19,720 nucleotides of DNA from a virus: the UHGV virus genome UHGV-0194792, one strand, 5' to 3'. Both the position numbers and the translations under genes were made by a program. This document shows positions 2,447 to 19,643 of this stretch, piece after piece. Numbering within the stretch: the first letter of the stretch is position 1; each line of letters begins with the position of its first letter. Under the pieces are notes generated by a model. The model was not told the DNA's origin. It made no database searches and was given only the letters and a program-made list of their open reading frames with translations.

Positions 2447-3926
2447 CACCATTCCGTCGAATACGCTGGTTCCGCTGTTTTATGCGGAAATGGATAACTC
2501 GGCGGCGAATACTGCACAGGACAGCGGGGCATCGTTGCTGATTGGTCACGCCAATAACGGTGCAGAGATTGTTGCCAACAGTCTGGTGCTGATGCCGTCG
2601 GCAGACTATGCACGCCAGATTTGTGGTGCGGGAAGTCAGCTGGCGCGTATGGTCGAGGCTTATCGCCAGACCGACCCGTTTGGCGAGCTGTATGTGATTG
2701 CCGTTCCGGAAGCCACAGGCGCGGCGGCAACGGTTACGCTGACGGTGACCGGAGCAGCAACCGAAACCGGCACGGTGAATGTGTATGTGGGACGTACCCG
2801 CGTGCAGGCACCGGTGACCAACGGCGATAACGTCACGACGATTGCCAGCAGTATCCAGGATGCCATCAATGCCGTTCCGGCCCTGCCGTTTACGGCCTCA
2901 TCTTCGGCAGGCGTGGTCACACTGACCGCGCGTCATAAGGGGCTTTGCGGGAATGAAATTCCTGTCAGCCTCAATTACTACGGCTTTGGTGGGGGCGAAG
3001 TGCTGCCAGCGGGCGTACAGATTGCCGTGGCGACGGGTACCGCCGGAGCGGGCGCTCCGGTTCTCACCGGCGCGGTGGCTGCAATGGCGGATGAGCCGTT
3101 TGATTATATCGGCCTGCCGTTCAACGACACGGCCTCCGTTAACACGCTGGTGACCGAGATGAACGATACCAGCGGTCGCTGGAGCTATGCGCGTCAGCTG
3201 TATGGTCATGTGTATACGGCAAAGATCGGCACGCTGTCAGAACTGGTGACCGCAGGTGACCAGTTTAACCAGCAGCACATTACCCTGGCGGGGTACGAAA
3301 AAGAGACCCAGACGCCTGCCGACGAACTGGCGGCAAGCCGTACCGCCCGCGCAGCGGTGTTTATCCGCAACGATCCGGCACGTCCCACGCAGACCGGTGA
3401 GCTGGTGGGTATGCTGCCTGCGCCGAAGGGGAAACGGTTCACGATGACCGAGCAACAGACCCTGCTGTCTCATGGCGTGGCAACGGCGTATGTCGAAAGC
3501 GGGGTGCTGCGCATTCAGCGTGATGTCACCACGTACAGGAAAAATGCTTACGGGGTTGCGGATAACAGCTACCTCGACAGCGAGACGCTGCATACCAGTG
3601 CGTATGTACTGCGCAAACTGAAATCCGTCATTACCAGTAAGTACGGGCGTCACAAGCTTGCCAGCGACGGCACCCGCTTTGGTCCCGGTCAGGCGATTGT
3701 CACCCCGGCGGTGATCAAAGGGGAACTGCTGGCAACCTACCGTCAGCTTGAGCGTGCGGGGATCGTGGAAAACTACGAACTGTTTAAGCAGTACCTGGTT
3801 GTGGAGCGTGATGCCAGCGATCCGAACCGCCTGAACACGCTGTTCCCGCCTGACTATGTTAACCAGTTGCGTGTCTTTGCCGTGGTTAACCAGTTCCGTC
3901 TTCAGTATTCAGAGGAGTCCGCATAA
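2430..3926 (+). CDS. contractile tail sheath protein (Mu gpL-like)
   Basis: 498-aa ORF with AAGGTG RBS 8 nt upstream, followed directly by a ~118-aa tube gene (TAATG overlap). Size and order match Mu-type sheath genes. Confidence 0.8.
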   Translation: MTISFNTIPSNTLVPLFYAEMDNSAANTAQDSGASLLIGHANNGAEIVANSLVLMPSADYARQICGAGSQLARMVEAYRQTDPFGELYVIAVPEATGAAATVTLTVTGAATETGTVNVYVGRTRVQAPVTNGDNVTTIASSIQDAINAVPALPFTASSSAGVVTLTARHKGLCGNEIPVSLNYYGFGGGEVLPAGVQIAVATGTAGAGAPVLTGAVAAMADEPFDYIGLPFNDTASVNTLVTEMNDTSGRWSYARQLYGHVYTAKIGTLSELVTAGDQFNQQHITLAGYEKETQTPADELAASRTARAAVFIRNDPARPTQTGELVGMLPAPKGKRFTMTEQQTLLSHGVATAYVESGVLRIQRDVTTYRKNAYGVADNSYLDSETLHTSAYVLRKLKSVITSKYGRHKLASDGTRFGPGQAIVTPAVIKGELLATYRQLERAGIVENYELFKQYLVVERDASDPNRLNTLFPPDYVNQLRVFAVVNQFRLQYSEESA

Positions 3927-4282
3927 TGGCCCGTATCGGGGGAACCTGTTATTTCAAAATTGACGGTCAGCAGCTATCGCTGACCGGCGGCATTGAGGTG
4001 CCCATGAACAGGACGGTCAATGATGACATCATCGGCCTGGACGGTTCAGTGGACCGCAAGGAAACTCACCGTGCGCCTTATGTCAAAGGGACCTTCAAGG
4101 TGCCGAAGAATTTTCCGGTGAACAAAATCACCTCGTCTGATGAGATGACCATCACTGCCGAGCTGGCGAACGGTCAGGTCTATGTACTGTCGTCTGCCTG
4201 GCTGCACGGCGAAGCGAACCATAATGCCGAAGAAGGCACGGTTGATCTTGAGTTCCACGGTGAAGAAGGGGATTACCAGTGA
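3926..4282 (+). CDS. tail tube protein (Mu gpM-like)
   Basis: 118-aa ORF immediately after the sheath gene and translationally coupled to it. Confidence 0.75.
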   Translation: MARIGGTCYFKIDGQQLSLTGGIEVPMNRTVNDDIIGLDGSVDRKETHRAPYVKGTFKVPKNFPVNKITSSDEMTITAELANGQVYVLSSAWLHGEANHNAEEGTVDLEFHGEEGDYQ

Positions 4283-4548
4283 TTGAGCTTGAGTTAAAGA
4301 AACCGATTACTGCTCATGGCGAGACACTCTCCGTACTGGAGTTTGATGAGCCCACCGGGAAGGATGTCCGCGAGCTGGGGTATCCCTACCAGATGAATCA
4401 GGATGAGTCAGTCAGACTTCTGGCGCATGTGGTGTCGAAATACATTGTGCGGCTGGCGAAAGTGCCGCAAAGCTCTGTCGACCAGATGTCTCCGGCAGAC
4501 CTGAATGCAGCGGCGTGGCTTGTGGCTGGTTTTTTCCTCCAGGCCTGA
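4279..4548 (+). CDS. tail assembly chaperone (short, unshifted product)
   Basis: 89-aa ORF between the tube and tape measure genes. A T-rich slippery site lies near its 3' end. Confidence 0.6.
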   Translation: MIELELKKPITAHGETLSVLEFDEPTGKDVRELGYPYQMNQDESVRLLAHVVSKYIVRLAKVPQSSVDQMSPADLNAAAWLVAGFFLQA

Positions 4549-4697
4549 CGGCTGAATACCTCACTGATCGCTTCTTTGACTGCGCCAGCTACTGGCGCAT
4601 TAATCCTTTCGAATTGCTGAATATGCCGATCAGTGAAATTCCCTTACTGGTCAGTCAGGCAAACAGGATAGAGCAGGAGAAACGCACACATGGCTGA
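4515..4697 (+). CDS. -1 frame extension of the tail assembly chaperone (frameshift product)
   Basis: The -1 frame is open across the slippery run T-TTT-TTC (4530-4536) and ends overlapping the tape measure start, as in the lambda G/GT and P2 E/E' arrangement. Confidence 0.5.
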   Translation: MACGWFFPPGLTAEYLTDRFFDCASYWRINPFELLNMPISEIPLLVSQANRIEQEKRTHG

Positions 4698-6525
4698 ATT
4701 TGAGCTTAAGGCGTTGATCACCGGTGTCGACAGGCTTTCTCCCGCGCTGTCGAAAATGCAAAAGAAAATCCGGGGATTTAAACGCCAGGCGGAAGAAGCG
4801 TCACAGGGTGGGCTGGCGCTTGGTGGCGGACTGGCAGCGGGTCTGACGCTTTCCCTGAAATCTTATGCCGATCAGGAAAACGCCGCCACCGGGCTGAAAG
4901 TCGCCATGATGGATGCGAACGGCGAGGTTGGAAAGAGCTTTCAGGACATCAATAAACTAGCTATTGGCCTGGGTAACCAGCTACCCGGTACAACGGCTGA
5001 TTTCCAGAACATGATGCAGATGCTGGTGCGTCAGGGGATCCCGGCAGAAAACATTCTGGGTGGTGTGGGTAAAGCGACAGCTTATCTTGCGGTACAACTG
5101 AAAAAAACACCGGAAGCGGCTGCTGAGTTTGCTGCAAAGATGCAGGATGCTACCGGAACGGCGTCAGAAGACATGATGGGGCTGTTCGACACTATCCAGA
5201 AGGCGTTTTATCTGGGCGTTGACGATACCAACATGTTGTCCTTCTTCACTAAAACCAGTTCTGTTCTGAAGATGGTGAACAAGGACGGTCTTCAGGCTGC
5301 ACAGAGCCTTGCCCCCATCAGCGTCATGATGGATCAGATGGGGATGAACGGGGAGTCGGCAGGTAATGCCCTGCGAAAAGTTATCCAGTCCGGATTAAGC
5401 GTTAAGAAAATCAGGGACGTTAATAAAGTTATGGCCCGCCAGAAACTCGGGGTACAGCTCGATTTTACTGACGGCAAAGGAAGTTTTGGCGGTCTTGATA
5501 ACATGTTCAGGCAACTGGCAAAGCTGCGAAAACTGACCGACGTTAAGCGAACAGGTGTACTTAAGGCAATATTTGGTGATGATGCTGAAACCCTTCAGGT
5601 GGTCAATGCTCTGATCGATAAAGGAAAGGATGGTTACGATCAGATCCAGCAGAAGATGAATAAACAGGCCAGCCTGAATAAACGTGTTCAGGCCCAGCTT
5701 GGTACGCTGTCCAACCTGTGGGAGGCAATGACGGGGACCGCAACTAACGGCCTTGCGGCTATTGGCGGCGCATTTTCTGGTGACGCCAAAAATATCACGC
5801 AATGGCTGGGAGAGTTAGGGGAAAAATTCACGAAGTTTGCGGATGAAAATCCCCGGGTTATTCGCGGCGTCGTCGGGCTTGCTGCCGGTCTTGCGATTCT
5901 GAAACTGGGATTGATGGGCGTTGGCGGTGCCATCAGTATTGTCAGCAGGATCATGTCGATGACGCCGATTGGAATGATTGCGACGGCGATAGCCCTGGCT
6001 GCGGGATTAATTATCACTAACTGGGATGTTGTCGGACCTTATTTCAAGAAGCTCTGGGAAACCATTGGTCCTTATTTTGAGGCTGGCTGGGAACTTCTGA
6101 AGAAGGTTTTTGCCTGGTCGCCGCTGGGGATGGTAATCAATAACTGGGGACCGGTTGTTAAGTGGTTTCAGGATATGTGGGACAAGCTGAAGCCAATTAT
6201 TGAGTGGTTTACCGACAGTTCCGGTGACACGGTCGATGTCATTAACTCTGCGCAGTGGGGCGCGGGTGCTTATGATGCTTATGGGACGGGAATACCGGCA
6301 CGGGGATACACACCTTATCAGGCGGTAGATCCGGCTCAGTCAAACAACGCCTCCGATGCCACAGGCCCGAATCCCTTCATGATTAACAAAGCTTCTGCGC
6401 CAAAAGTTGATGGTGAGATCAAGGTCTCTTTTGTGAATTCGCCTCCGGGTATGCGGGTTATGGAAACGCGATCCAGCGGTTTTGATGTCAGCCATGATGT
6501 TGGCTATACGCGCTTTGGCAGGTAA
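4690..6525 (+). CDS. tail tape measure protein
   Basis: 611-aa ORF directly downstream of the chaperone pair, with a Gly/Ala-rich hydrophobic segment and a Trp-rich C-terminal region. GGAGAA RBS upstream. Confidence 0.8.
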   Translation: MAEFELKALITGVDRLSPALSKMQKKIRGFKRQAEEASQGGLALGGGLAAGLTLSLKSYADQENAATGLKVAMMDANGEVGKSFQDINKLAIGLGNQLPGTTADFQNMMQMLVRQGIPAENILGGVGKATAYLAVQLKKTPEAAAEFAAKMQDATGTASEDMMGLFDTIQKAFYLGVDDTNMLSFFTKTSSVLKMVNKDGLQAAQSLAPISVMMDQMGMNGESAGNALRKVIQSGLSVKKIRDVNKVMARQKLGVQLDFTDGKGSFGGLDNMFRQLAKLRKLTDVKRTGVLKAIFGDDAETLQVVNALIDKGKDGYDQIQQKMNKQASLNKRVQAQLGTLSNLWEAMTGTATNGLAAIGGAFSGDAKNITQWLGELGEKFTKFADENPRVIRGVVGLAAGLAILKLGLMGVGGAISIVSRIMSMTPIGMIATAIALAAGLIITNWDVVGPYFKKLWETIGPYFEAGWELLKKVFAWSPLGMVINNWGPVVKWFQDMWDKLKPIIEWFTDSSGDTVDVINSAQWGAGAYDAYGTGIPARGYTPYQAVDPAQSNNASDATGPNPFMINKASAPKVDGEIKVSFVNSPPGMRVMETRSSGFDVSHDVGYTRFGR

Positions 6526-6585: not shown

Positions 6586-7914
6586 ATGACGTGGAAAGAC
6601 AGACTTCAGGACGCGTCATTTCGCGGTGTGCCGTTTAAGGTTGAAGAAGAAAGTGCGGGAACCGGTCGTCGTGTGGAAACGCACGAATACCCGAACCGCG
6701 ACAAACCCTATACCGAAGACCTGGGGAAAATCACTTTCCGCCCGTCCATCACAGCTTATGTGGTGGGAGATGACTGCTTTGACCAGCGCGATCGCCTGAT
6801 TGACGCGCTGAATAAACCCGGTCCCGGCACGCTTGTCCATCCGACTTACGGTGAGCTGAAAGTCTGTGTTGACGGGGAAGTTCGGGTCAGCACATCGAAG
6901 AGTGAAGGGCGTATTGTCCGCTTTGACCTGAAGTTTGTCGAAGCGGGAGAACTCTCTTACCCCACTTCAGGTGCGGCGACGGCGCAGACGCTGATGTCAT
7001 CCTGTTCTGCACTGGATGACTGCATCAGTGACAGCTTCAGTGGTTTCAGTATCGATGGCGTGGCAGATTTTGTGCAGAACGACGTCGTCGGTAATGCCAG
7101 CACAATGCTTGGGTATGTTTCTGATGCGATGAAAGTGGTGGATTCTGCCGTATCGGATGCCGCCAGGCTGTTGCAGGGGGATATCTCGGTACTTCTGCCG
7201 CCGCCATCGTCAGGCAAAAATTTCGTTGAGCAGGTGCAGAAAATGTGGCGTACCGGGAAACGCCTTTATGGTAACGCCAGCGACCTGGTCACCATGATCA
7301 AAACGCTTTCCGGTGTCAGCCTCGGCAGCGATCTGCAACCGCGCGGCGTCTGGAAAACGGACAGTAAAACCACCGCCACGGCGACGCAGCAGCGTAACGT
7401 GGTTGCCAGCACCCTTCGTACGGCCGCAATCAGCGAAGCGGCGTATGCCGTCACCCGATTGCCTGCGCCAACAACTTCCGCGGTGATGCAGAATGCCGCA
7501 GTGGGGCAGGCAACAACACCCGCGCAGAGCACTGGCTGGCCTTCCGTCACGCATCCGGCACTGAACAATGCACCGGCGGTGAAAAGCACGGTTGACCTGC
7601 CGACGTGGGAAGAACTGACTGACATTCGCGACACACTGAATACGGCAATTGATAAGGAGTTGTCCCGAACAACCAGTGATGCGCTGTTTCTGGCGCTGCG
7701 CCGGGTGAAAGCAGATCTGAATGCGGATATCAACACGCGCCTTGAACAGTCTGCACGGATCATTCAGCGCACGCCGGATGAGGTTTTACCCGCGCTGGTG
7801 CTGGCGGCGACCTGGTTTGATAACGCGGCGCGTGACGCGGACATTATCCGGCGTAATGCCATTACGCATCCCGGCTTTGTGCCGGTGATCCCTCTGAAGG
7901 TGCCAGTGCAATGA
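6586..7914 (+). CDS. DNA circulation protein (Mu gpN / gp43-like tail protein)
   Basis: The track ORF begins at 6544, but ATG at 6586 has a GGAG RBS 8 nt upstream and gives an N-terminus (MTWKDRLQDASFRGVPF) resembling Mu N-family proteins as I recall them. Position after the tape measure gene matches the Mu order. Confidence 0.65.
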   Translation: MTWKDRLQDASFRGVPFKVEEESAGTGRRVETHEYPNRDKPYTEDLGKITFRPSITAYVVGDDCFDQRDRLIDALNKPGPGTLVHPTYGELKVCVDGEVRVSTSKSEGRIVRFDLKFVEAGELSYPTSGAATAQTLMSSCSALDDCISDSFSGFSIDGVADFVQNDVVGNASTMLGYVSDAMKVVDSAVSDAARLLQGDISVLLPPPSSGKNFVEQVQKMWRTGKRLYGNASDLVTMIKTLSGVSLGSDLQPRGVWKTDSKTTATATQQRNVVASTLRTAAISEAAYAVTRLPAPTTSAVMQNAAVGQATTPAQSTGWPSVTHPALNNAPAVKSTVDLPTWEELTDIRDTLNTAIDKELSRTTSDALFLALRRVKADLNADINTRLEQSARIIQRTPDEVLPALVLAATWFDNAARDADIIRRNAITHPGFVPVIPLKVPVQ

Positions 7915-9963: not shown

Positions 9964-11008
9964 ATTTCAGCGCCCGACGCTGGCAGAAAATATCAGTATG
10001 CTCCGTAACGATTTATTCGCCAGGCTGGACGTCAGCGACACGCTCCGGCGCATGGATGAAGACGTGCGGGCAAAGGTGTATGCGGCGGCGCTGCATACGG
10101 TTTACGGTTACATCGATTATCTGGCAATGAACATGCTGCCTGACCTGTGCGATGAGTCCTGGCTGGCGCGACATGCTGCGATGAAACGGTGTCCGCGCAA
10201 GGGGGCCACGGCTGCCAGCGGGTATATGCGCTGGGAAGGTGTCAGCGATGGCCTGAAGGTGACCGCCGGGAGTGTTATTCAGCGCGATGACCTGGTTCAG
10301 TACACGGCAACTGCCGATGCAACCAGCTCCGGTGGTGTCCTGCGCGTGCCGATCGCCTGCTCAAGTGCAGGCGCGGTCGGTAACGCTGACGACGGTACGT
10401 CATTAATCCTGGTCACGCCGGTGAATGGTCTGCCGTCTTCCGGCGTGGCAGACACTCTGACAGGTGGATTTGATACTGAAGAGCTGGAAACGTGGCGCGC
10501 CCGCGTCATTGAGCGGTATTACTGGACGCCTCAGGGCGGGGCTGACGGGGACTATGTTGTCTGGGCTAAAGAAGTGCCAGGCATTACCCGTGCATGGACA
10601 TACCGCCACTGGATGGGAACGGGGACTGTCGGTGTGATGATTGCCAGCAGTGACCTGATTAATCCCATTCCGGAAGAATCAACGGAAACGGCGGCAAGAC
10701 AACACATTGAGCCACTGGCCCCGGTGGCAGGCTCTGATTTGTATGTATTCAGGCCGGTGGCGCATAAAGTGGATTTTCATATCCGCGTGACGCCGGACAC
10801 ACCGGAAATACGGGCTGCCATCACCGCCGAGTTGCGTTCGTTCCTGCTGCGTGATGGTTATCCGCAGGGAGAACTGAAGGTGTCGCGTATCAGTGAGGCG
10901 ATTTCCGGTGCGAACGGGGAATACAGCCATCAGTTGCTTGCACCGGCGGACAATATCTCCATTGCAAAAAATGAACTGGCGGTACTGGGGACGATTTCAT
11001 GGACGTGA
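9950..11008 (+). CDS. baseplate J-like protein (Mu gp47-like)
   Basis: 352-aa ORF, coupled to its neighbours, in the baseplate J position. Confidence 0.7.
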
Positions 11009-11583
11009 CAAACGATGATTACATCCATCTGTTGTCGGCACTGTTGCCTCCCGGTCCGGCGTGGTCAGCCAGCGATCCGGCGATTGCCGGTGCGGCACCG
11101 TCATTAACTCGCGTTCATCAGCGTGCGGATGCCCTGATGCGGGAGCTGGATCCGCGCACCACCACCGAACTGATAAATCGCTGGGAGCGTCTGTGCGGCC
11201 TGCCGGATGAATGTATTCCCGCAGGGACACAGACCCTTCGCCAGCGTCAGCAACGACTGGATGCGAAGGTTAACCTAGCGGGCGGCATCAATGAGGATTT
11301 TTACCTTGCACAGCTTGCTGCCCTGGGCAGACCAGACGCCACCATCACGCGATACGACAAAAGCACGTTCACCTGCTCATCGGTCTGTACTGACGCGGTG
11401 AATGCGCCGGAATGGCGGTATTACTGGCAGGTCAACATGCCAGCCGCCACCAACACCACCTGGATGACATGTGGCGACCCCTGCGATTCCGCACTGCGTA
11501 TCTGGGGGGACACCGTTGTCGAATGTGTGCTTAACAAACTCTGCCCGTCGCATACCTACGTAATTTTTAAATATCCGGAGTAA
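10999..11583 (+). CDS. Mu gp48-like tail protein (DUF2313-type)
   Basis: 194-aa ORF between the baseplate J-like gene and the tail fibre gene, the slot gp48 occupies in Mu. Confidence 0.6.
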
Positions 11584-11586
11584 TCC

Positions 11587-12357
11587 ATGCATCGTATAGA
11601 CACGAAAACCGCGCAGAAGGATAAGTTCGGCGCGGGTAAGAACGGTTTTACCCGTGGTAACCCCCAGACCGGCACGCCTGCCACCGATCTGGATGATGAC
11701 TACTTTGACATGTTGCAGGAAGAGCTTTGTGGCGTGGTGGAGGCATCCGGTGCCAGCCTGGAGAAGGGGAGGCACGACCAGCTGCTTACCGCGCTTCGTG
11801 CGCTGCTGTTAAGCCGCAAGAATCCGTTTGGCGATATCAAATCGGATGGCACCGTGAAAACAGCTCTCGAAAACCTTGGTTTGGGAGAAGGCTCTGCATT
11901 ACCTGTTGGTGTGCCTGTTCCATGGCCTTCAGCCACACCGCCAACAGGCTGGCTGAAATGCAACGGTGCGGCTTTTTCTGCTGAAGAATACCCGGAACTG
12001 GCAAAGGCTTATCCGACAAATAAATTGCCTGATTTACGTGGTGAGTTTATTCGTGGCTGGGATGACGGGCGCGGTATTGATGCAGGACGTGTTTTATTGA
12101 GCATTCAGACAGGGATGCTGGAAAAACACCGCCATATTGTTGTTGCCAATGATGGTTACGACACAAAAGATGAATGGGAACTGGCTACGATTTTCAAAAA
12201 GACATACACACAAGGACGGGGACTTGATGCCGCAAATACAGGAGGGAGTCTGATCCCATCACCGACACTTCATTCACGAGGGAGTATCGGTAATACTGGC
12301 GGGAGGGAAACCCGTCCACGAAATATTGCATTTAACTATATCGTGAGGGCTGCATAA
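11587..12357 (+). CDS. tail fibre protein: constant N-terminus fused to the currently expressed variable C-terminal cassette
   Basis: 256-aa ORF with GGAG RBS. The C-terminal part carries an [12 protein letters not shown] collar-like motif. A hix/gix-like crossover site lies inside the gene at 11864-11889, so codons after about 11877 belong to the invertible segment. Confidence 0.8.
11864..11889. other. invertase crossover site, left (hix/gix-like, 12-2-12: CTCTCGAAAACC TT GGTTTGGGAGAA)
   Basis: Imperfect palindrome with an AAACC-NN-GGTTT core resembling hixL/gix as I recall them. 15 bp (11876-11890) are a perfect inverted repeat of 13731-13745. Confidence 0.7.
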
Positions 12358-12959
12358 TGGATAACGCCGTATTAAATAGCGAGCTTATTGCCACGAAGGC
12401 GGGGAATATTACCGTCTATAACTATGATGGTAAAACTCGGGAATATATTTCTACTTCAAATGAATATCTTGCCATTGGTGTCGGTATCCCTGCATATTCC
12501 TGTCTGGATGAACCTGGTATACATAAGGCGGGTTATGCTATCTGCCGTTCGATGGATTTAAACTCATGGGAATATGTGCCAGACCATCGCGGTGAAATCG
12601 TCTATAACACCGAAACGGGAGACGCCAAAGAAATCACAGCTCCGGGTGATTATCCTGAAAATACAACCACTATCGCCCCGTTAACGCCATTCGATAAATG
12701 GGATGGTAAGAAATGGGTGACCGATACTGAGGCACAGCATAGCGCCGCAGTAGACGCGGCAGAAGCACAGCGTCAGTCACTGATTGATACTGCAATGGCT
12801 TCCATCAGTCTGATTCAACTGAAATTGCAGGCCGGGCGGAAGCTGACGCAGGCAGAAACCACCCGACTTAACGCTGTGCTGGATTACATTGACGCGGTGA
12901 CGGCAACAGATACGAGCACCGCGCCGGATGTCATCTGGCCTGAACTGCCGGAGGCGTAG
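12357..12959 (+). CDS. tail fibre assembly protein (active orientation)
   Basis: 200-aa ORF coupled to the fibre gene (stop/start overlap at 12357) with GAGGG RBS. Its C-terminus resembles that of the opposite-strand assembly gene. Confidence 0.7.
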   Translation: MDNAVLNSELIATKAGNITVYNYDGKTREYISTSNEYLAIGVGIPAYSCLDEPGIHKAGYAICRSMDLNSWEYVPDHRGEIVYNTETGDAKEITAPGDYPENTTTIAPLTPFDKWDGKKWVTDTEAQHSAAVDAAEAQRQSLIDTAMASISLIQLKLQAGRKLTQAETTRLNAVLDYIDAVTATDTSTAPDVIWPELPEA

Positions 12960-13371
12960 GCCATTCAATATCTGGCGCACCGGAAGTATCGACCAGTTCC
13001 AGTGCGTCCAGGTAATCCAGCCACAAATTATATTGCGCCAGTTCGTCACCTTTCAGACGACCAATAGCCGCTTTACCAGGCCATTGTTTACTGTTCATAT
13101 AATCGTTGGCCTGATTAATCAATTGCTGCTTCTCCAGTTCGGCTGCAGCAATTTGTTCCTCATGTGTTGGTGGTGGAATTTCGGACCATGCAGGAAAACC
13201 ATTTTCTCCAGCGATACGGATTTTTCCTTTCGGCGGTAATCCGGAAAACTCAATATACACTTGCTCATCAACTTCAACAGCATCATCTGGCCATGAGTCA
13301 GCTTGAGTGTAATCCTCTTTCATCTCCAGCGGATAGAAAGAGTTTGTAGTCGCGGAATATATGTAATTCAT
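12931..13371 (-). CDS. tail fibre assembly protein (alternative, silent orientation)
   Basis: 146-aa minus-strand ORF with GGAGTG RBS. Its C-terminus (LDYLDALELVDTSGAPDIEWP) parallels that of the + strand assembly protein (LDYIDAVTATDTSTAPDVIWP). It lies 22 nt downstream of the alternative fibre cassette. Confidence 0.7.
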   Translation of the reverse strand: MNYIYSATTNSFYPLEMKEDYTQADSWPDDAVEVDEQVYIEFSGLPPKGKIRIAGENGFPAWSEIPPPTHEEQIAAAELEKQQLINQANDYMNSKQWPGKAAIGRLKGDELAQYNLWLDYLDALELVDTSGAPDIEWPTPPAVQAR

Positions 13372-13392
13372 TTTTCACTCCATATAGCTAAA

Positions 13393-13745
13393 TTAACAGC
13401 CTAACGCTAAAAATGAAGCGCCGAGGCCAGGAGTACTGGCTCTGGATATAAATTTAACCGGGTCGGGACTAAAACCTGCACAGGCAATATAACCAACAGC
13501 CCCGCTATCTGGTGTATAGTCTTGTGAGACCAAAACACGCAGACATCTGTTTGGAAATGCAATTGGGAAATGGGTTACTACATCCTGTGCAATGCCTGGA
13601 GCGCCGATTGAGCCCCACTGAAGAATAAAACCTGATGGTAATTTTTGATATCCAGTACCTGAAACAGAAAGCGTGAAGCTACCCATATCAGGTATCTGAT
13701 TCGCCCCTGTCCCTACATTCCTTTTAGCCGCTTCTCCCAAACCAA
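13393..13745 (-). CDS. promoterless alternative tail-fibre C-terminal cassette
   Basis: The minus-strand frame is continuous with the crossover site: after inversion, ...ENL of the constant part joins [13 protein letters not shown]... in frame. Contains an ILQWGS motif typical of fibre tips. The 13 codons upstream of the site in the track ORF are not expected to be translated. Confidence 0.65.
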
Positions 13746-13757
13746 CGTTTATGAAAA
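13732..13757. other. invertase crossover site, right (hix/gix-like: TTCTCCCAAACC AA CGTTTATGAAAA)
   Basis: Inverted copy of the left site with the same central dinucleotide on the opposite strand. Lies about 55 bp upstream of the invertase start. Confidence 0.7.
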
Positions 13758-13811
13758 TGCAGAAATAACGAGCAAATGGCATCATTCCTGCTTTTGTCAG
13801 GGGGATCTACC

Positions 13812-14366
13812 ATGCTTATTGGCTATGTACGCGTATCAACAAATGACCAGAACACAGATCTACAACGTAATGCGCTGAACTGTGCAGGATGCGAGCTGAT
13901 TTTTGAAGACAAGATAAGCGGCACAAAGTCCGAAAGGCCGGGACTGAAAAAACTGCTCAGGACATTATCGGCAGGTGACACTCTGGTTGTCTGGAAGCTG
14001 GATCGGCTGGGGCGTAGTATGCGGCATCTTGTCGTGTTGGTGGAGGAGTTGCGCGAACGAGGCATCAACTTTCGTAGTCTGACGGATTCAATTGATACCA
14101 GCACACCAATGGGGCGTTTTTTCTTTCATGTGATGGGTGCCCTGGCTGAAATGGAGCGTGAACTGATTGTTGAACGAACAAAAGCTGGACTGGAAGCTGC
14201 TCGCGCACAGGGACGAATTGGTGGACGTCGTCCCAAACTTACACCAGAACAATGGGCGCAGGCCGGACGATTAATTGCAGCAGGAATTCCTCGCCAGAAG
14301 GTGGCGATCATCTATGATGTTGGTGTATCGACACTGTATAAGAAGTTTCCGGTCGGAGATAAATGA
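13812..14366 (+). CDS. serine DNA invertase (Gin/Pin/Hin/Cin family)
   Basis: The N-terminus MLIGYVRVSTNDQNTDLQRNAL with catalytic Ser in VRVST, and blocks such as GDTLVVWKLDRLGRSM and MGRFFFHVMGALAEMERELI, match my recollection of Gin/Pin. ATG at 13812 with a GGGGGA RBS is preferred over the track start at 13776. A C-terminal helix-turn-helix region is present. Confidence 0.9.
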   Translation: MLIGYVRVSTNDQNTDLQRNALNCAGCELIFEDKISGTKSERPGLKKLLRTLSAGDTLVVWKLDRLGRSMRHLVVLVEELRERGINFRSLTDSIDTSTPMGRFFFHVMGALAEMERELIVERTKAGLEAARAQGRIGGRRPKLTPEQWAQAGRLIAAGIPRQKVAIIYDVGVSTLYKKFPVGDK

Positions 14367-14541
14367 AACCGCAGGCTCGTCGTATGCAAGAAAGTGCTGC
14401 GGCTGGCTGGCCAGCTTCTGATAGTGCGAATATTGAATGATTTCCAGCCGTTATCGATTTTACATATTTTTGTATGAGAGGATTTTTACCTCCTCCCACC
14501 TATCCTCCATGACTTTACGCCACTGTCTCTAGGGCTGCTAT

Positions 14542-14556
14542 GTGCCAGAAGCGGAC
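14542..14556 (+). repeat. direct repeat copy 1 (GTGCCAGAAGCGGAC; extended imperfect match about 14531-14570)
   Basis: 15-bp perfect core read directly. The second copy is at 15595-15609. The two copies bracket the HEPN-like gene. Confidence 0.6.
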
Positions 14557-14604
14557 TTCATTAGATTCTTTGTTTTTTGTGTTAATATACTTACAATCCC
14601 ATCA

Positions 14605-15420
14605 TCAACTAACAACCCAATCATCAGATAATATATCACTGATATTGAAAATATAGGTATGGTTATTTTTACCATCTGAAATGACGATTTTTTTTAAGTT
14701 GAATCTTTCTGATATGATATGCGTTGCAAATTGTGGGATTATTAAAAACAAAGCCTCTACCTTACTGATTAATTCAATGTTGACTTTAGGTCTGAAGTTT
14801 GCATCATGAACCACTTTGTGCCTAATGTAAAATGCTTCCTCTATGAGGGCTCTCCAGTCTGGAAATATATTTTCTATCGATAAATCTTGGGAAATTTGGC
14901 CACTCAGACCGCAAGGAGATATATTAGTTGTACATATGTAGTTTAAAAAACTCTCACCCCACATGCCATTATATGCTTCTTCAAGGTCGTTTAAGTTTTG
15001 AAAGTTAAAGCTTTTACTCAATAACTCTGATAGATTTATCTCAGTGTTTATATTGATAGATGTTTCTGTTCTCATTTTAGATAGTAGTGTTGTAATTCTA
15101 GATTCATCAACTGAATGCACGAAAACAAAAACGTCTCTAAAATATGTTTCCCAGCAACTGATTAGAAATACAAAATATTGTCGATATGCTGTTTTATAAA
15201 TATCTATTTTCTTATCTTTCGTTGAAATAAGTGAATGCATAAGTCGACAATTTTCTGCAAAATTTAGTAGGAAAGACATTGAGAAGTCTTCTATAGCTCC
15301 TCTTGATTCGCGAAGAGATAGCAATTCATCAATAATTTTTTTATTGATTTTCCTAATCTTTTTCAATTGCATGCCTCGTTTTTGCTTAAGTAAAGTTGAT
15401 TTTGGAGTTTCGTCAATCAT
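14605..15420 (-). CDS. hypothetical protein with R-x4-H (HEPN-like) motif; possible Abi-type effector
   Basis: 271-aa ORF in a visibly AT-rich segment, rich in Lys/Ile/Asn. Motif RHKVVH at about residue 205 fits the HEPN signature R-[NHQ]-x3-H. The start is uncertain: 15420 has a weak RBS, and an alternative ATG is at 15372. Confidence 0.5.
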   Translation of the reverse strand: MIDETPKSTLLKQKRGMQLKKIRKINKKIIDELLSLRESRGAIEDFSMSFLLNFAENCRLMHSLISTKDKKIDIYKTAYRQYFVFLISCWETYFRDVFVFVHSVDESRITTLLSKMRTETSININTEINLSELLSKSFNFQNLNDLEEAYNGMWGESFLNYICTTNISPCGLSGQISQDLSIENIFPDWRALIEEAFYIRHKVVHDANFRPKVNIELISKVEALFLIIPQFATHIISERFNLKKIVISDGKNNHTYIFNISDILSDDWVVS

Positions 15421-15594
15421 GTTATCTTATTAGATTTAAAGATAAAGTAACTTTTTGCATAAGCTTTGCGACAAAGATAGCTTTAATGAAAGGCCTTATA
15501 GAGCTACTTGGCCATAAAAATTTTTACGATGAATTCGAATTCAGCGTCCGCTCCTCGCTTAAAGCTGTCCTTGGGCCTAACCTACGATAGCTTC

Positions 15595-15609
15595 GTGCCA
15601 GAAGCGGAC
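15595..15609 (+). repeat. direct repeat copy 2 (GTGCCAGAAGCGGAC)
   Basis: Identical 15-mer to 14542-14556. Flanking bases are partly conserved (GCTnnGTGCCAGAAGCGGAC...TAnGAT). Confidence 0.6.
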
Positions 15610-15896
15610 ATTACTAAGATAGTAACGTATCAAACGGTGGGACAAGTCATGCCAAGTGCGGAAGTGGCTAACAACCATCTGTGTTGTTTAACGGGGAACA
15701 GGTCATTCCATTGACCCGATCATTTATGTTGCGCTGACGCTTAGGTGATAAAAAGCCGCCTATGCCCGTCTATCTTTGGGGATCCGCAATGAAGTTGATT
15801 GTGAGGTTATTAGGCTGGGTCTTCTCATTTATAAGTTGTTGAAGTAGCAACGAATTATCGAGCGATTTATCCCGATTAAATGTCTCACTATTACTC

Positions 15897-17021
15897 TTAA
15901 TCGGTAAATTCATAGTTTGGCCGCATTGAGAAACGCCACAGAGGCAGGCCTCCCCCTTTGTAATCATCAGGGATGGTTACCGTGAAAAGTCTGACATTCT
16001 GCCGGGTGTCAACTGACCTGATCTGGCTGTCGTGTACAGTCTGCTCGTTAAAGGCCGACGTGACCAGCGAACTCAGCGTACCTATAAAGTCGAAACCCTG
16101 TCTTTTGTAATTTTCGTCGTCTTCCGGGGAAAATGTGTATCGGATGCTCTCAAGCTGACCATCAGTGAATATTGCCTCCGATCCGGGGCAGAGCCACTCT
16201 CCGTAGCGCATCAGATGAAACGCCGTGTTCATTTCAAATTTATCCGTTACTTGTCTGTCATTGCAGTAAATTTTAATCTCGCCAATTGTAAAATGGGCGA
16301 TGCCTTCGGGACTAACTGAAACTTCTTTGGTCCGGTCGGGGATAAGCTCAAAAACCAGATCGGGTTCTGTTGCTATCGATAGGTCGCCCAGCAGGTACAT
16401 CTCACTTTTTGCGAGCGCCGAGGCCTGCGTCAAGGTATGTTCACGCTCTAGCTCCTTCATTGAGGAGCGTGCAACCAGCGCCCACCGGCGCAGCATCCTG
16501 ATGTAGATGGCATAATAAACTGGAATACCATGGAGCTCACCGTACTTTTCAACCTTATCACTGTACGATTTCTTCAGGCGATAATCGTCAGCCACGTCAT
16601 CCGCGTTAAAGTTTTTTACTTCCACAAAGATCTGACGGCGATCCTTCAGTATAATGCGATAGTCAGGTGCCACCAGATCGGGATCGGCTGACATCAAGTC
16701 TCCGGCGTCTTCCTGTTTAAGAAACTGGCAGTGGTTCAGTGCGGCGCAAACGTGTTTAAATAGGTTTTCTATTCTTTTCCCGTTCAGCAGAATTGGATTC
16801 TGATGGGAAGCGATTAATGACGTGGTGACCTTTTGTATAAAGTCATCCTGGTGCTCGGGGTTTTTAATATCGTAATTATAGATCTGGCCCAACGAGGAAA
16901 AAAGCTCAAAGGCTTCAAATCGTTCGGGATTCCTCTTGATTCTTTCCATTAATGACTCCGCAGCTAATAAATACAACGAAATGAGATCACTTGTTTCTCT
17001 GAAGTTACCTGAAAACTGCAT
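15897..17021 (-). CDS. hypothetical protein with PD-(D/E)xK nuclease-like motif
   Basis: 374-aa ORF. The segment APDYRIILKDRRQIFVEVK carries PD followed 13 residues later by E-V-K, as in restriction-endonuclease-fold active sites. It lies 70 bp downstream of and co-directional with the FRG-like gene. Confidence 0.5.
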   Translation of the reverse strand: MQFSGNFRETSDLISLYLLAAESLMERIKRNPERFEAFELFSSLGQIYNYDIKNPEHQDDFIQKVTTSLIASHQNPILLNGKRIENLFKHVCAALNHCQFLKQEDAGDLMSADPDLVAPDYRIILKDRRQIFVEVKNFNADDVADDYRLKKSYSDKVEKYGELHGIPVYYAIYIRMLRRWALVARSSMKELEREHTLTQASALAKSEMYLLGDLSIATEPDLVFELIPDRTKEVSVSPEGIAHFTIGEIKIYCNDRQVTDKFEMNTAFHLMRYGEWLCPGSEAIFTDGQLESIRYTFSPEDDENYKRQGFDFIGTLSSLVTSAFNEQTVHDSQIRSVDTRQNVRLFTVTIPDDYKGGGLPLWRFSMRPNYEFTD

Positions 17022-17090
17022 TCTGCACGGCGATTAAAGCGGCTATGGGCCCACGCTGGCACACAGGCGTGCCGTGCGACTAAAGCGCTA

Positions 17091-18461
17091 TCAGATTCGT
17101 CCATCGTATAGTTTTGCAATTTCCGTAGCAGCCTTCTCAATGCCGGGGTACACCGTGCTTTCGTTAATGCCAAGGCGGCTCAGTTGCTGCATCAGATGCT
17201 CTTTGTTTCTAATAACAAGCTTTTTGATGTTCAGCGTACTGAGTCCCGTTTCCGGTAGGTCTACGTTTTCACCAAAGAGCAGGAAAGCGCCTGATTGGGA
17301 CGAAATACGTGCGTTACTGAGCCGACCTTTGACCACAACAATTTTACTTAGGTGGACCGGATCGATGATGCTTTTGAAATAGGACTTTTCATCGCGGATC
17401 AGGTGTAGTAGTTGTCCGCACTCTTCAGATTCGTTAAACGCCGGAATGGTGAGATTAGTTTTCAGGCTGCTTTTGAAACGAGAGGGAAGACGGGAAAGAT
17501 TGGCTATGCAACTTACGGTATCCGAGTCGAAAAACTTAATTTCACTTTTGGGCGTCGTCAGAATAATGACGTTCCCGTCAATTTCATGATTATTTTCATC
17601 GTGCTTGATTTTAGAGCAGGCAAAATATAGTGCGATCAAGGGGTTTGTTGATACATCAAGCAGGCGTGTGGGTAGGCCATAGTGTTGCATGCGCACGAGT
17701 TTATCTAGCATATACCGATCGTCTTTGAACTCGGCGGGCTGCACGGTCAGCAGCTCTGTTATCATGTCCGATTCGTGATGGCGGTAGCGATAGTTACCCT
17801 GAGTATCCTTGCGGAACAGTGAGGGTTCCAGTTGGTAGTTGATGTCCGAGTGACCGCGGTAAAATACCTCTTCATCGTTTCCCTGTGTATGATCGAGTAT
17901 CACCTGCAAGTACTGATTGATATTCGCAATGATCTCTAGTTCTTCATTATTCTCCGGTGCTTCCGCACTCGCTGCTGCGGGCTCAACATTAGAATAGCCT
18001 TCAAGGCCTAAAACACGCAGAATCTCATTTACGGAAATCTCTTTGACCGCCCAGAACGTTCTGTTTAGTCCGAAACTGCCCAGCTCCAGCTCACTTACGT
18101 ACTCTTTATCGCTGGTTAAAGGCTTGTAGCCGATATCACTGGTAATCTCATAATCAAACGCTAAAACTTTTTCTCTGTTATACACGGACGTACTTATCTT
18201 GCTGATTTTTCCTAAGCGGATGTGGCTGAAATAACCTATTTTTTCATTATCTTCATCGAATTCAATTTCCGGCTCGGACATAAATACAACGGGCAGTTCC
18301 TGAAGAAAATGATAGGTTTTTTCAGTCAGGGGAAGCAATCTGCTTCTAAGAGACTCTGGCGTGGATTCGAAGAGTCGCGACACAGGGAAAGAGTCATTGC
18401 CACTGGGTTCAGAAAAAAAAGTGTAGTATTTGGGGGTTCCGACAACGATAAGATTCAGCAT
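17091..18461 (-). CDS. FRG-domain-like protein with N- and C-terminal extensions
   Basis: 456-aa ORF with GAGGA RBS 8 nt upstream. Central blocks FYRGHSDINYQLEPSLFR and QHYGLPTRLLDVSTNPLIALYFA match my recollection of the Pfam FRG-domain signature. About 185 residues precede the domain. Confidence 0.55.
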   Translation of the reverse strand: MLNLIVVGTPKYYTFFSEPSGNDSFPVSRLFESTPESLRSRLLPLTEKTYHFLQELPVVFMSEPEIEFDEDNEKIGYFSHIRLGKISKISTSVYNREKVLAFDYEITSDIGYKPLTSDKEYVSELELGSFGLNRTFWAVKEISVNEILRVLGLEGYSNVEPAAASAEAPENNEELEIIANINQYLQVILDHTQGNDEEVFYRGHSDINYQLEPSLFRKDTQGNYRYRHHESDMITELLTVQPAEFKDDRYMLDKLVRMQHYGLPTRLLDVSTNPLIALYFACSKIKHDENNHEIDGNVIILTTPKSEIKFFDSDTVSCIANLSRLPSRFKSSLKTNLTIPAFNESEECGQLLHLIRDEKSYFKSIIDPVHLSKIVVVKGRLSNARISSQSGAFLLFGENVDLPETGLSTLNIKKLVIRNKEHLMQQLSRLGINESTVYPGIEKAATEIAKLYDGRI

Positions 18462-19046: not shown

Positions 19047-19643
19047 TTTAAATCAATAAGTTATCTCACATTTAAGTAAACTACGTTCTCCTCTTGTGCC
19101 TTTGATTTTGCTCGCGTGCGCGGTGAAATGCCTGACTGAAAGGTGAGCATATCGACGAACCATTTCGAGAGTTTCCCATCTGCTCATTTTTAAGTGCAAG
19201 CAGGAAAACACCGGACTAAACCAATCAGCTGTTCGAAAATGGCAAGCGGATTAATATGCCATGGCGGGGCAGCTTTGAGCCGCACGCATGGGGTGTGGCA
19301 AGCCTGATGGATTTTGCTGTGCCTGTGGTGGCGTGTTTGCTGGTTTGGCTGTTGGTTAAACGCGAAAGTCATAATGCCAGGGGAATACCGCAGGGTGTTC
19401 AGGTTTTGCATAAAAAAGCCCACCATTAAGGTGGGCAAAAGGAATGATTTATATTCTCTGAGAGAAACATTACATTTCTCCTTGTCACTTCTAACATAAA
19501 AATATGGAGAAATAATGGAGCTTATATTAATTGGCGATTAGGTAACCATGTGGTTATACAAAACAATACAGTTCTTTACATTTGCCTTGTTTTATGAATA
19601 CTCCTGAAGAGGTGTACAACATAATTAAACAAACAGGGTAAAT

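Follow-up and report, generated by a model that had tools for sequence, protein, structure and literature searches.

A Pin-type tail-fibre inversion switch of the e14 family in an apparently complete prophage

Background

Does the tail-fibre locus of the virus genome UHGV-0194792 carry an inversion switch that operates in nature, and to which of the known systems does it belong? We analysed a stretch of 19,720 nucleotides of this genome (the window, in whose coordinates all positions are given), where a tail-fibre gene is followed by a second variable tail-fibre end on the opposite strand and then by an invertase gene. Invertase-driven tail-fibre switching, as in the G segment of Mu, the C segment of P1 and the P segment of e14, has been textbook knowledge since the 1980s. 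A sequence-only reading of the window had proposed a switch resembling the G segment, with two unrelated receptor-binding cassettes between its crossover sites. The analysis below indicates that the locus is very probably a Fis/enhancer-dependent serine-invertase switch of the Hin/Gin/Cin/Pin family, and specifically the Pin/P-segment system of e14-type prophages.

Crossover sites and invertible segment

The left crossover site (pixL-type, 11864-11889, plus strand) reads CTCTCGAAAACC TT GGTTTGGGAGAA, with the central TT at 11876-11877. The right site (pixR-type, 13732-13757, minus strand) reads TTTTCATAAACG TT GGTTTGGGAGAA as its reverse complement, the centre being AA on the plus strand at 13744-13745, that is, TT on the minus strand. 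The two sites share a perfect inverted repeat of 15 nt (11876-11890 against 13731-13745) that extends to 20 nt at 95% identity; the 19.7-kb window has exactly two copies of the 15-mer, and about 0.007 such repeat pairs would be expected by chance in 3.8 kb. Within each 26-mer, one half-site agrees with the other at 9 of 12 positions (left) or 8 of 12 positions (right), and both are therefore imperfect palindromes, as the sequence-only reading had described them together with the perfect repeat and the common central dinucleotide.

For comparison, family sites were taken from the Mu record, the P1 record and a Salmonella contig, the hixL used in the alignment being verified beside a hin gene in Salmonella. 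Aligned in register with gix, cix and hix, the window sites show identities at 17-20 of the 26 positions. Across the aligned family sites, half-site positions 8, 10 and 11 are invariant, positions 2, 4, 9 and 12 agree in 11 of the 12 half-sites, and the half-site consensus TTnTCnnAAACC is retained in the window. The suggestion that the sites are of hix/gix type is upheld by this alignment, in which they do fit the consensus. Searching the window for a third site, with the 15-mer at up to 3 mismatches and with the core AAACCNNGGTTT at up to 1 mismatch, returned no further site, the additional matches at 2986 and 1359 being at chance level. We therefore rejected a multi-site shufflon or multiple-inversion system, such as Min of p15B or the multi-site P2-like modules, because only two sites exist.

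Between the centres of the two sites lies an invertible segment of 1868 bp (11877-13744), with 1840 bp between the arms of the 15-nt repeat. The left site falls inside the tail-fibre gene (11587-12357, plus strand), whose present fusion of a constant N-terminus and a Collar-type variable C-terminus encodes 256 aa. The constant part of about 97 codons (11587-11876, plus strand) is located outside the segment and is 96-98% identical to residues 1-105 of K-12 StfP and of the O157 homologue, after which the alleles diverge. The left site had been placed at the junction of constant and variable parts, and two comparisons converge on this position: the identity to K-12 StfP (96%, residues 1-105) ends there, and homology to P2-like phages starts at 11865. 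The right site was correctly located upstream of the invertase, its end lying 54 bp before the invertase ATG at 13812. Inversion in silico generates an unbroken ORF of 213 aa, which runs from the constant N-terminus through ...ALENLGLGE into the minus-strand cassette. The reading frames thus match, as had been predicted for a fusion of the N-terminus to this cassette, and one genome with the inverted form has this 213-aa protein in its annotation.

Tail-fibre cassettes and assembly proteins

The present C-terminus contains a Collar domain (Pfam PF07484, E 1.8e-15) that includes the LPDLRG motif, and the variable part matches the tip of T4 gp37 (2XGF, E 1.6e-17) and T4 gp12. It is followed by the gene for a tail-fibre assembly protein of TfaE type (200 aa, 12357-12959, plus strand; Pfam Caudo_TAP, E 3.9e-33), for which a sequence search detected no relative among solved structures. 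The alternative C-terminus, encoded on the minus strand (13393-13785), has a gp53-like tip (Pfam Gp53-like_C, PF21882, E 4.3e-15) with LQWG inside the domain, and shows weak matches to AP22 gp53 (4MTM) and to R-type pyocin fibres. The cassette proper spans 13393-13743, and its ORF crosses the right site and extends to a local ATG at 13785. The assembly protein of this second cassette (146 aa, 12931-13371, minus strand; Caudo_TAP, E 1.5e-37) is encoded convergently with the TfaE-type gene, with an overlap of 29 bp. BLAST of one variable end against the other gave no match. The earlier description of two ends that differ in kind, a collar-like one with LPDLRG in current use and a QWG-type tip as the alternative, each with an assembly protein of its own, agrees with these domain and structure assignments.

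Invertase and presumed enhancer

Outside the segment, at 13812-14366 on the plus strand, we identified a Pin-type serine DNA invertase of 184 aa (Pfam Resolvase and HTH_7). It is 97.8% identical to PinE (180/184, four substitutions), 83.2% to Cin, 79.3% to Gin and about 66% to Hin (121/184), is collinear with Gin, Cin and Hin, and matches the Gin structure 3UJ3 over residues 1-181 (E 3.7e-94). The catalytic serine is conserved (Ser9, aligned with Ser10 of Hin). Also kept are Q150, R153 and L154, the equivalents of Hin Gln151, Arg154 and Leu155 (Q151/R154/L155), which were named as Fis-contact residues by McLean et al. 2013 (PMC3798978). The RefSeq annotation at the locus reads pinE, tfaE and ymfQ.

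The presumed recombinational enhancer is found within the invertase gene (13830-13901, plus strand), at the position homologous to the annotated P1 enhancer (cin nt 19-90). It holds two Fis-like 15-mers (13834-13848 and 13882-13896) whose centres are 48 bp apart, the nearer of them 96.5 bp from the centre of the right site. Centred on nt 30 and 78 of the gene, these 15-mers keep their positions in pinE, gin, cin and hin; coding requirements also constrain this stretch. Five invertase genes retain the enhancer homologue and the 48-bp Fis-like spacing, and the window gene agrees with K-12 pinE at every one of its first 120 nt. Motif and position together suggest that this stretch is an enhancer with two putative Fis sites. 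In the interval from the right site to the ATG, a simple scan detected no sigma-70-like promoter that could serve the invertase. Across 13300-14700, two promoter-like sites were found against 2.5 expected, with no candidate for pin or for the minus-strand ORF, and the same scan returned no terminators.

Relation to e14 and to other inversion systems

The closest known counterpart is the e14 prophage of K-12, compared here by means of the K-12 record. Both 26-mers of the window are identical to the K-12 sites (e14 L001, 4779-4804 on the left and 6606-6631 on the right), and within them lies the inverted repeat TTGGTTTGGGAGAAGG that Kirigo et al. 2025 (PMC12529663) gave for e14. The gene order ymfQ-stf-tfa-tfa'-stf'-pin is common to both prophages, as are the cassette types, a Collar tip with a 200-aa TfaE and a gp53-like tip with a shorter Tfa. 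The term G-segment-like therefore holds in so far as this is a Gin-family switch, but the identical crossover sites and the 97.8% identical invertase place it more precisely in the e14 Pin system. The cassettes themselves are less similar: identity to K-12 e14 is 61% for the Collar tip, 88.5% for TfaE and 27% for the gp53-like tip (the StfP C-terminus), while the second chaperone is 61% identical to K-12 TfaP over 102 aa, and the window has no nucleotide match to K-12 stfP-tfaP. With alleles so diverged, the segment is an allelic variant of the P segment and not the K-12 segment itself. It measures 1868 bp against 1827 bp in e14 (centre to centre), and its orientation in the window is opposite to that of the MG1655 reference. 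The surrounding prophage, a remnant in K-12, is apparently complete here, with an HK97-type head and a Mu-type contractile tail.

The Gin system of Mu shares the general layout, with the constant part of the S gene outside, two convergent tip-plus-chaperone cassettes inside, and the invertase just past the right site with the enhancer, presumed in the window, in its 5' coding part. The Mu gix site aligns in register with those of the window at 17-18 of 26 positions, and the neighbouring baseplate genes of the window, gp48 and baseplate J, are of Mu type. The G segment differs in its length of about 3 kb, a longer constant part, a 34-bp repeat, a central dinucleotide TC (TT in the window) and other tips. 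In P1, cixL and cixR match the window sites at 19-20 of 26 positions with the TT core in common; the P1 record annotates the cix crossover between the two central bases, and the window sites align in register with cixL and cixR. The enhancer annotated at cin nt 19-90 corresponds to 13830-13901, whereas the C segment is 4.2 kb long and cin is positioned on the other side, its 3' end overlapped by cixL. The hixL site of Salmonella enterica agrees with the window sites at 20 of 26 positions, including the TT/AA core, and Hin likewise has Fis-like motifs 48 bp apart at homologous positions, in an enhancer about 100 bp from the nearer site (PMC3798978). Unlike the window, the Hin system inverts a promoter for flagellin genes and swaps no coding cassettes. 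P2-like modules (for example KC618326, E. coli O157:H43 T22) are 81-90% identical to the window at the nucleotide level from the left site (11865) through the cassettes into the invertase gene, and share the inner half-site GGTTTGGGAGAA, which encodes the GLGE junction in both. They differ in their constant part, a long P2 H-type fibre with about 350 aa before the junction, and in their outer half-sites, TTCTCGCATACC.

Orientation of the segment in public genomes

The sequence-only reading would have been contradicted by a segment found in a single orientation. In public genomes we found both. Three complete E. coli genomes match the form inverted in silico at 100% identity over 3501 bp (BLAST), two match the form of the window at 100% identity, and records with this cassette pair number 77 in one orientation and 70 in the other. 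The near-clonal O157:H7 strains 113 and 119 show no mismatch over 6429 bp once one of them is inverted in silico at the central dinucleotide, while without this inversion every difference falls between the sites. The breakpoints are resolvable to the identical 15-bp core, not to the TT itself. On this comparative evidence, the segment inverts and is evidently active in nature. Inversion of the e14 P segment has been demonstrated experimentally in K-12 cultures (PMC4272514; PMC12529663).

Proposed mechanism and alternative explanations

In the mechanism proposed here, Pin dimers would bind the two 26-bp sites and host Fis the two sites 48 bp apart in the enhancer at the 5' end of pin, and the three DNA segments would assemble into an invertasome on supercoiled DNA. 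Ser9 of every Pin subunit would then cleave at the central TT with a 2-bp stagger, one pair of subunits would turn by 180 degrees, and the ends would be rejoined. This would flip the 1868-bp segment while the tail-fibre gene retains its promoter and first ~97 codons, producing either the Collar-type tip with the TfaE-type chaperone, the state of the window, or the gp53-like tip with the 146-aa chaperone. One lysogen population would thus yield phage of two different receptor specificities. We infer that the local Pin, not a related invertase elsewhere in the genome, is the catalyst, that inversion depends on Fis and that it affects host range.

The orientations in public records could in principle have arisen by RecA-dependent recombination at the short repeats or as assembly artefacts. 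The breakpoints map no finer than the shared 15-bp core, and an assembler reduces a mixed population to one orientation. A repeat of 15-20 bp is, however, shorter than is usually required for efficient RecA recombination, and these repeats are bona fide invertase sites beside an intact invertase. Moreover, near parity (77 against 70 records) and differences among near-clonal isolates require frequent switching, and a mixed culture that gave ambiguous assemblies would itself be evidence of it. We hold this explanation to be very unlikely indeed. Pin-type modules are often repeated within E. coli genomes (median 2, up to 10 matching places; three in ECONIH1), and PinQ and PinR have been reported to invert the e14 P segment in trans, with PinQ dominant (PMC12529663). 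The adjacent gene need therefore not be the only or main catalyst. That it is redundant or inactive, the segment being flipped in trans by other chromosomal Pin-family invertases, is nevertheless improbable, since the gene is full length, encodes the catalytic serine, keeps the Fis-contact residues and differs from PinE by just four substitutions.

A further question is whom the switch serves. In e14, inversion is reported to create StfE2, a leader joined to a gp53-like C-terminal domain, which blocks T2 adsorption (Kirigo et al. 2025, PMC12529663). The ORF at 13393-13785 has the same architecture, with a leader resembling that of K-12 and the gp53-like_C domain at residues 48-130, and the orientation of the window is the equivalent of the inverted state in K-12. 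It could be made as a free protein that masks outer-membrane receptors and blocks the adsorption of other phages, the switch serving chiefly the lysogen. Against this, the gp53-like domain is just 27% identical to that of K-12 StfP, which makes a shared receptor specificity unlikely; promoter-like sites around the ORF are no more frequent than expected by chance; the conservation of the leader could be explained by its overlap with the crossover site and with the region upstream of pin; and the silent ORF, as annotated in the P2-like relative, does not continue across the site. Since the prophage looks complete, the classical host-range role is also available. We regard a switch chiefly for the lysogen as unlikely, and give slightly less credence still to the reading that the 'silent' cassette, with a 17-aa leader before the gp53-like domain, is produced as a free receptor-shielding protein in the window orientation. 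A benefit to the lysogen is compatible with the same inversion mechanism, to which it would add without replacing it. If such a shielding protein is made, one switch would govern both the host range of the phage and the defence of its host, an effect lately claimed for StfE2 of K-12 e14.

Implications and flanking genes

The type of switch is already known: the locus is an e14 Pin system whose two cassettes have diverged, and the prophage around it is apparently intact. As a discovery it carries little weight, RefSeq already naming the locus pinE. Its value is practical, in that an apparently intact member of the e14 family may still form particles, in contrast to the K-12 remnant, and such a phage would allow the study of both the host-range effects of the Pin switch and the claimed host protection by the pin-proximal ORF. 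Loci of this kind also repeatedly give rise to apparent structural differences among otherwise identical E. coli genomes.

The slot after pin, occupied by mcrA in K-12 e14, contains an FRG-domain gene and two genes of unknown function in the window. An NCBIfam search with these three cargo proteins, the invertase and the tail-fibre protein returned nothing above the cut-off. In a PADLOC search with the three cargo proteins and the invertase, the FRG protein alone gave a match, to the family PDC-S15.

An e14-type Pin switch in an E. coli prophage

The window is a prophage of E. coli, and its tail-fibre region is the already known Pin switch of e14, the prophage remnant of E. coli K-12 (MG1655); the first description of this switch dates from 1985 (Plasterk and van de Putte, as cited in PMC4272514). 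Over the stretch searched (11000-14500), ECONIH1 and B2 are 100% identical to the window, and by the ECONIH1 annotation the phage looks complete, with lysis genes, terminase, portal, HK97-type protease and capsid followed by a Mu-type contractile tail and baseplate. The YmfQ gene (Mu gp48-like, 10999-11583) lies before the tail-fibre region, where we detected a 256-aa tail fibre with a C-terminal Collar domain (11587-12357, plus strand), a 200-aa tail-fibre assembly protein (12357-12959, plus), a 146-aa assembly protein (12931-13371, minus), an ORF with a gp53-like domain at its C-terminus (13393-13785, minus) and a 184-aa serine recombinase that has a Resolvase and an HTH_7 domain (13812-14366, plus). 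The gene order in MG1655 e14 is ymfQ, stfP, tfaP, tfaE, stfE and pinE. Between its invertase, PinE, and that of the window there are 4 substitutions in 184 residues, the two genes do not differ in their first 120 nt, and RefSeq names the window locus pinE. The window invertase is 83% identical to Cin of P1, 79% to Gin of Mu (crystal structure 3UJ3 matched, E 3.7e-94) and about 66% to Hin of Salmonella. Different alleles in the cassettes and a more complete surrounding prophage are what set the window apart from K-12.

Crossover sites

The two sites are 26-bp imperfect palindromes centred on TT. The left site (11864-11889) reads CTCTCGAAAACC TT GGTTTGGGAGAA and the reverse complement of the right site (13732-13757) reads TTTTCATAAACG TT GGTTTGGGAGAA, with 9/12 and 8/12 half-site matches, respectively. 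The inverted repeat is perfect over 15 nt (11876-11890 and 13731-13745) and present exactly twice in the window, the chance expectation for such pairs being about 0.007 per 3.8 kb; a search with the core AAACCNNGGTTT found no third site in the window. The two 26-mers, with their repeat and identical central dinucleotide, are as the sequence-only reading had described them. Both 26-mers are identical to those of K-12 e14, and the sites of both prophages contain the repeat TTGGTTTGGGAGAAGG given by Kirigo et al. 2025 for the P segment, the invertible segment of e14 (PMC12529663).

That reading had also assigned the sites to the hix/gix type, and the alignment bears it out. Comparison sites were taken from annotated records, except hixL, whose sequence was located as an exact match in Salmonella enterica subsp. 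diarizonae, ~70 bp upstream of a hin gene. The P1 sites cixL (CAATCCTAAACC TT GGTTTAAGAGAA) and cixR (TTATCCAATACC TT GGTTTAAGAGAA), where the P1 annotation puts the crossover in the middle of the central dinucleotide, the Mu site gix (TTATCCAAAACC TC GGTTTACAGGAA, at the annotated G-segment boundaries) and hixL are in register with the window sites, with 17-20 of 26 positions identical and a half-site consensus of TTnTCnnAAACC.

Both orientations in public genomes

In-silico inversion of 11877-13744 brings the 97 constant codons and the minus-strand cassette into one reading frame, in agreement with the matching reading frames proposed earlier, and the 213-aa product is also annotated in strain WP4-S18-ESBL-09. 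The inverted form, with exchange at the central dinucleotide, is found at 100% identity over 3501 bp in the complete genomes of WP4-S18-ESBL-09, 4973 and TOE3, and ECONIH1 and B2 match the window orientation. Among records covering at least 80% of the query, this cassette pair is in the window orientation in 77 and in the opposite one in 70. Of 5426 genomes queried with the junctions only, 514 have the constant part fused to the Collar end and 382 have it fused to the gp53-like end. Both orientations of the proposed switch, and not one alone, are present in public genomes.

In a set of near-clonal O157:H7 cattle isolates, a version with 94% identity sits in either orientation at one and the same place in the chromosome. 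After in-silico inversion, strains 113 and 119 are free of mismatches over 6429 bp; left uninverted, they differ only between the sites. The crossover can be placed only to within the 15-bp common core, at the edge of which lies the central TT. Sequencing and PCR (PMC4272514) and qPCR (PMC12529663) have shown that the e14 segment inverts in clonal cultures of K-12. RecA-dependent recombination or an assembly artefact is very unlikely as the origin of the two forms.

The two cassettes

The variable ends had been called different in kind, which is justified because BLAST found no match between them and their structural relatives differ: these are the T4 gp37 tip (2XGF, E 1.6e-17) and T4 gp12 for the Collar end and, as weak matches, AP22 gp53 (4MTM) and R-type pyocin fibres for the gp53-like end. 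The two chaperones have only their C-terminal ~70 residues in common (37.5% identity). Identity to the K-12 counterparts is 61% for the Collar end (stfE cassette), 88.5% for the 200-aa assembly protein (TfaE), 27% for the gp53-like end (StfP C-terminus) and 61% for the chaperone of that end (TfaP); the P segment has therefore kept its domain architecture, with different alleles. The convergent assembly-protein genes overlap by 29 bp (12931-12959). On either side lies an 18-nt inverted repeat (89%; 12878-12895 and 13004-13021), which reflects a C-terminal motif common to both proteins (LDYIDA and LDYLDA) and is a possible substrate for cassette exchange.

Mechanism of inversion

Classical invertasome-mediated inversion, by which the tail fibre would exchange its tip together with its chaperone, is the best-supported mechanism. 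The Cin enhancer is annotated in P1 at cin nt 19-90, and the homologous stretch of the window (13830-13901), which is also coding, is at the sequence level a putative Fis enhancer. It contains two 15-mers that fit a degenerate Fis pattern, TATCAACAAATGACC (13834-13848) and GTGCAGGATGCGAGC (13882-13896), 48 bp apart centre to centre and with the nearer centre 96.5 bp from that of the right site; Fis-like motifs occur at the same two positions in pinE, gin, cin and hin. The Hin enhancer is described as a pair of Fis sites some 100 bp away from hix, and Fis is contacted by Hin Gln151, Arg154 and Leu155 (PMC3798978), to which Q150, R153 and L154 of the window invertase are equivalent.

The pin-proximal ORF (13393-13785) extends across the right crossover site as far as an ATG of its own, and the resulting leader peptide resembles the start of K-12 stfE. 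Its architecture is that of StfE2, the K-12 e14 inversion product reported in 2025 as a blocker of T2 adsorption (PMC12529663). By analogy this short ORF might serve host defence, but a scan of 13300-14700 found no promoter for it above chance, and we consider such a role rather unlikely. The 3.5-kb module is matched in 3636 of 5426 complete E. coli genomes, at a median of 2 and a maximum of 10 places per genome and in some cases on plasmids; a genome therefore often has several Pin-type invertases, each of which could act on the sites of the others. Catalysis in trans by other Pin-family invertases of the same genome seems quite improbable here, and either alternative would add to the invertasome mechanism rather than replace it.

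Module exchange and neighbouring genes

In P2-like phages (e.g. KC618326), nucleotide homology starts at 11865, at the left site. It spans the cassettes and reaches into the invertase gene, with 81-90% identity (2500-4992 of the phage locus L011) and the same GLGE junction peptide. The module is a mosaic unit common to different myophage tail types, and the whole switch appears to be exchangeable between Mu-type-tail and P2-type phages.

The stretch from the invertase to the end of the prophage holds three cargo genes (14605-18461, minus strand): one for a 271-aa protein with a sub-threshold HEPN RiboL-PSP match, a 374-aa ORF for which no family match was found, and one for a 456-aa FRG-domain protein matching the PADLOC candidate defence family PDC-S15 (E 8e-99). 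The same slot is occupied by mcrA in K-12 e14 and by a LEM-3-like GIY-YIG gene in O157 strains, and looks like a variable defence-gene slot. At the right edge of the prophage, just before yagU, the ECONIH1 annotation has a frameshifted and N-terminally truncated integrase fragment (about 19061-19215, minus), which may be left over from a different element in that attachment region.
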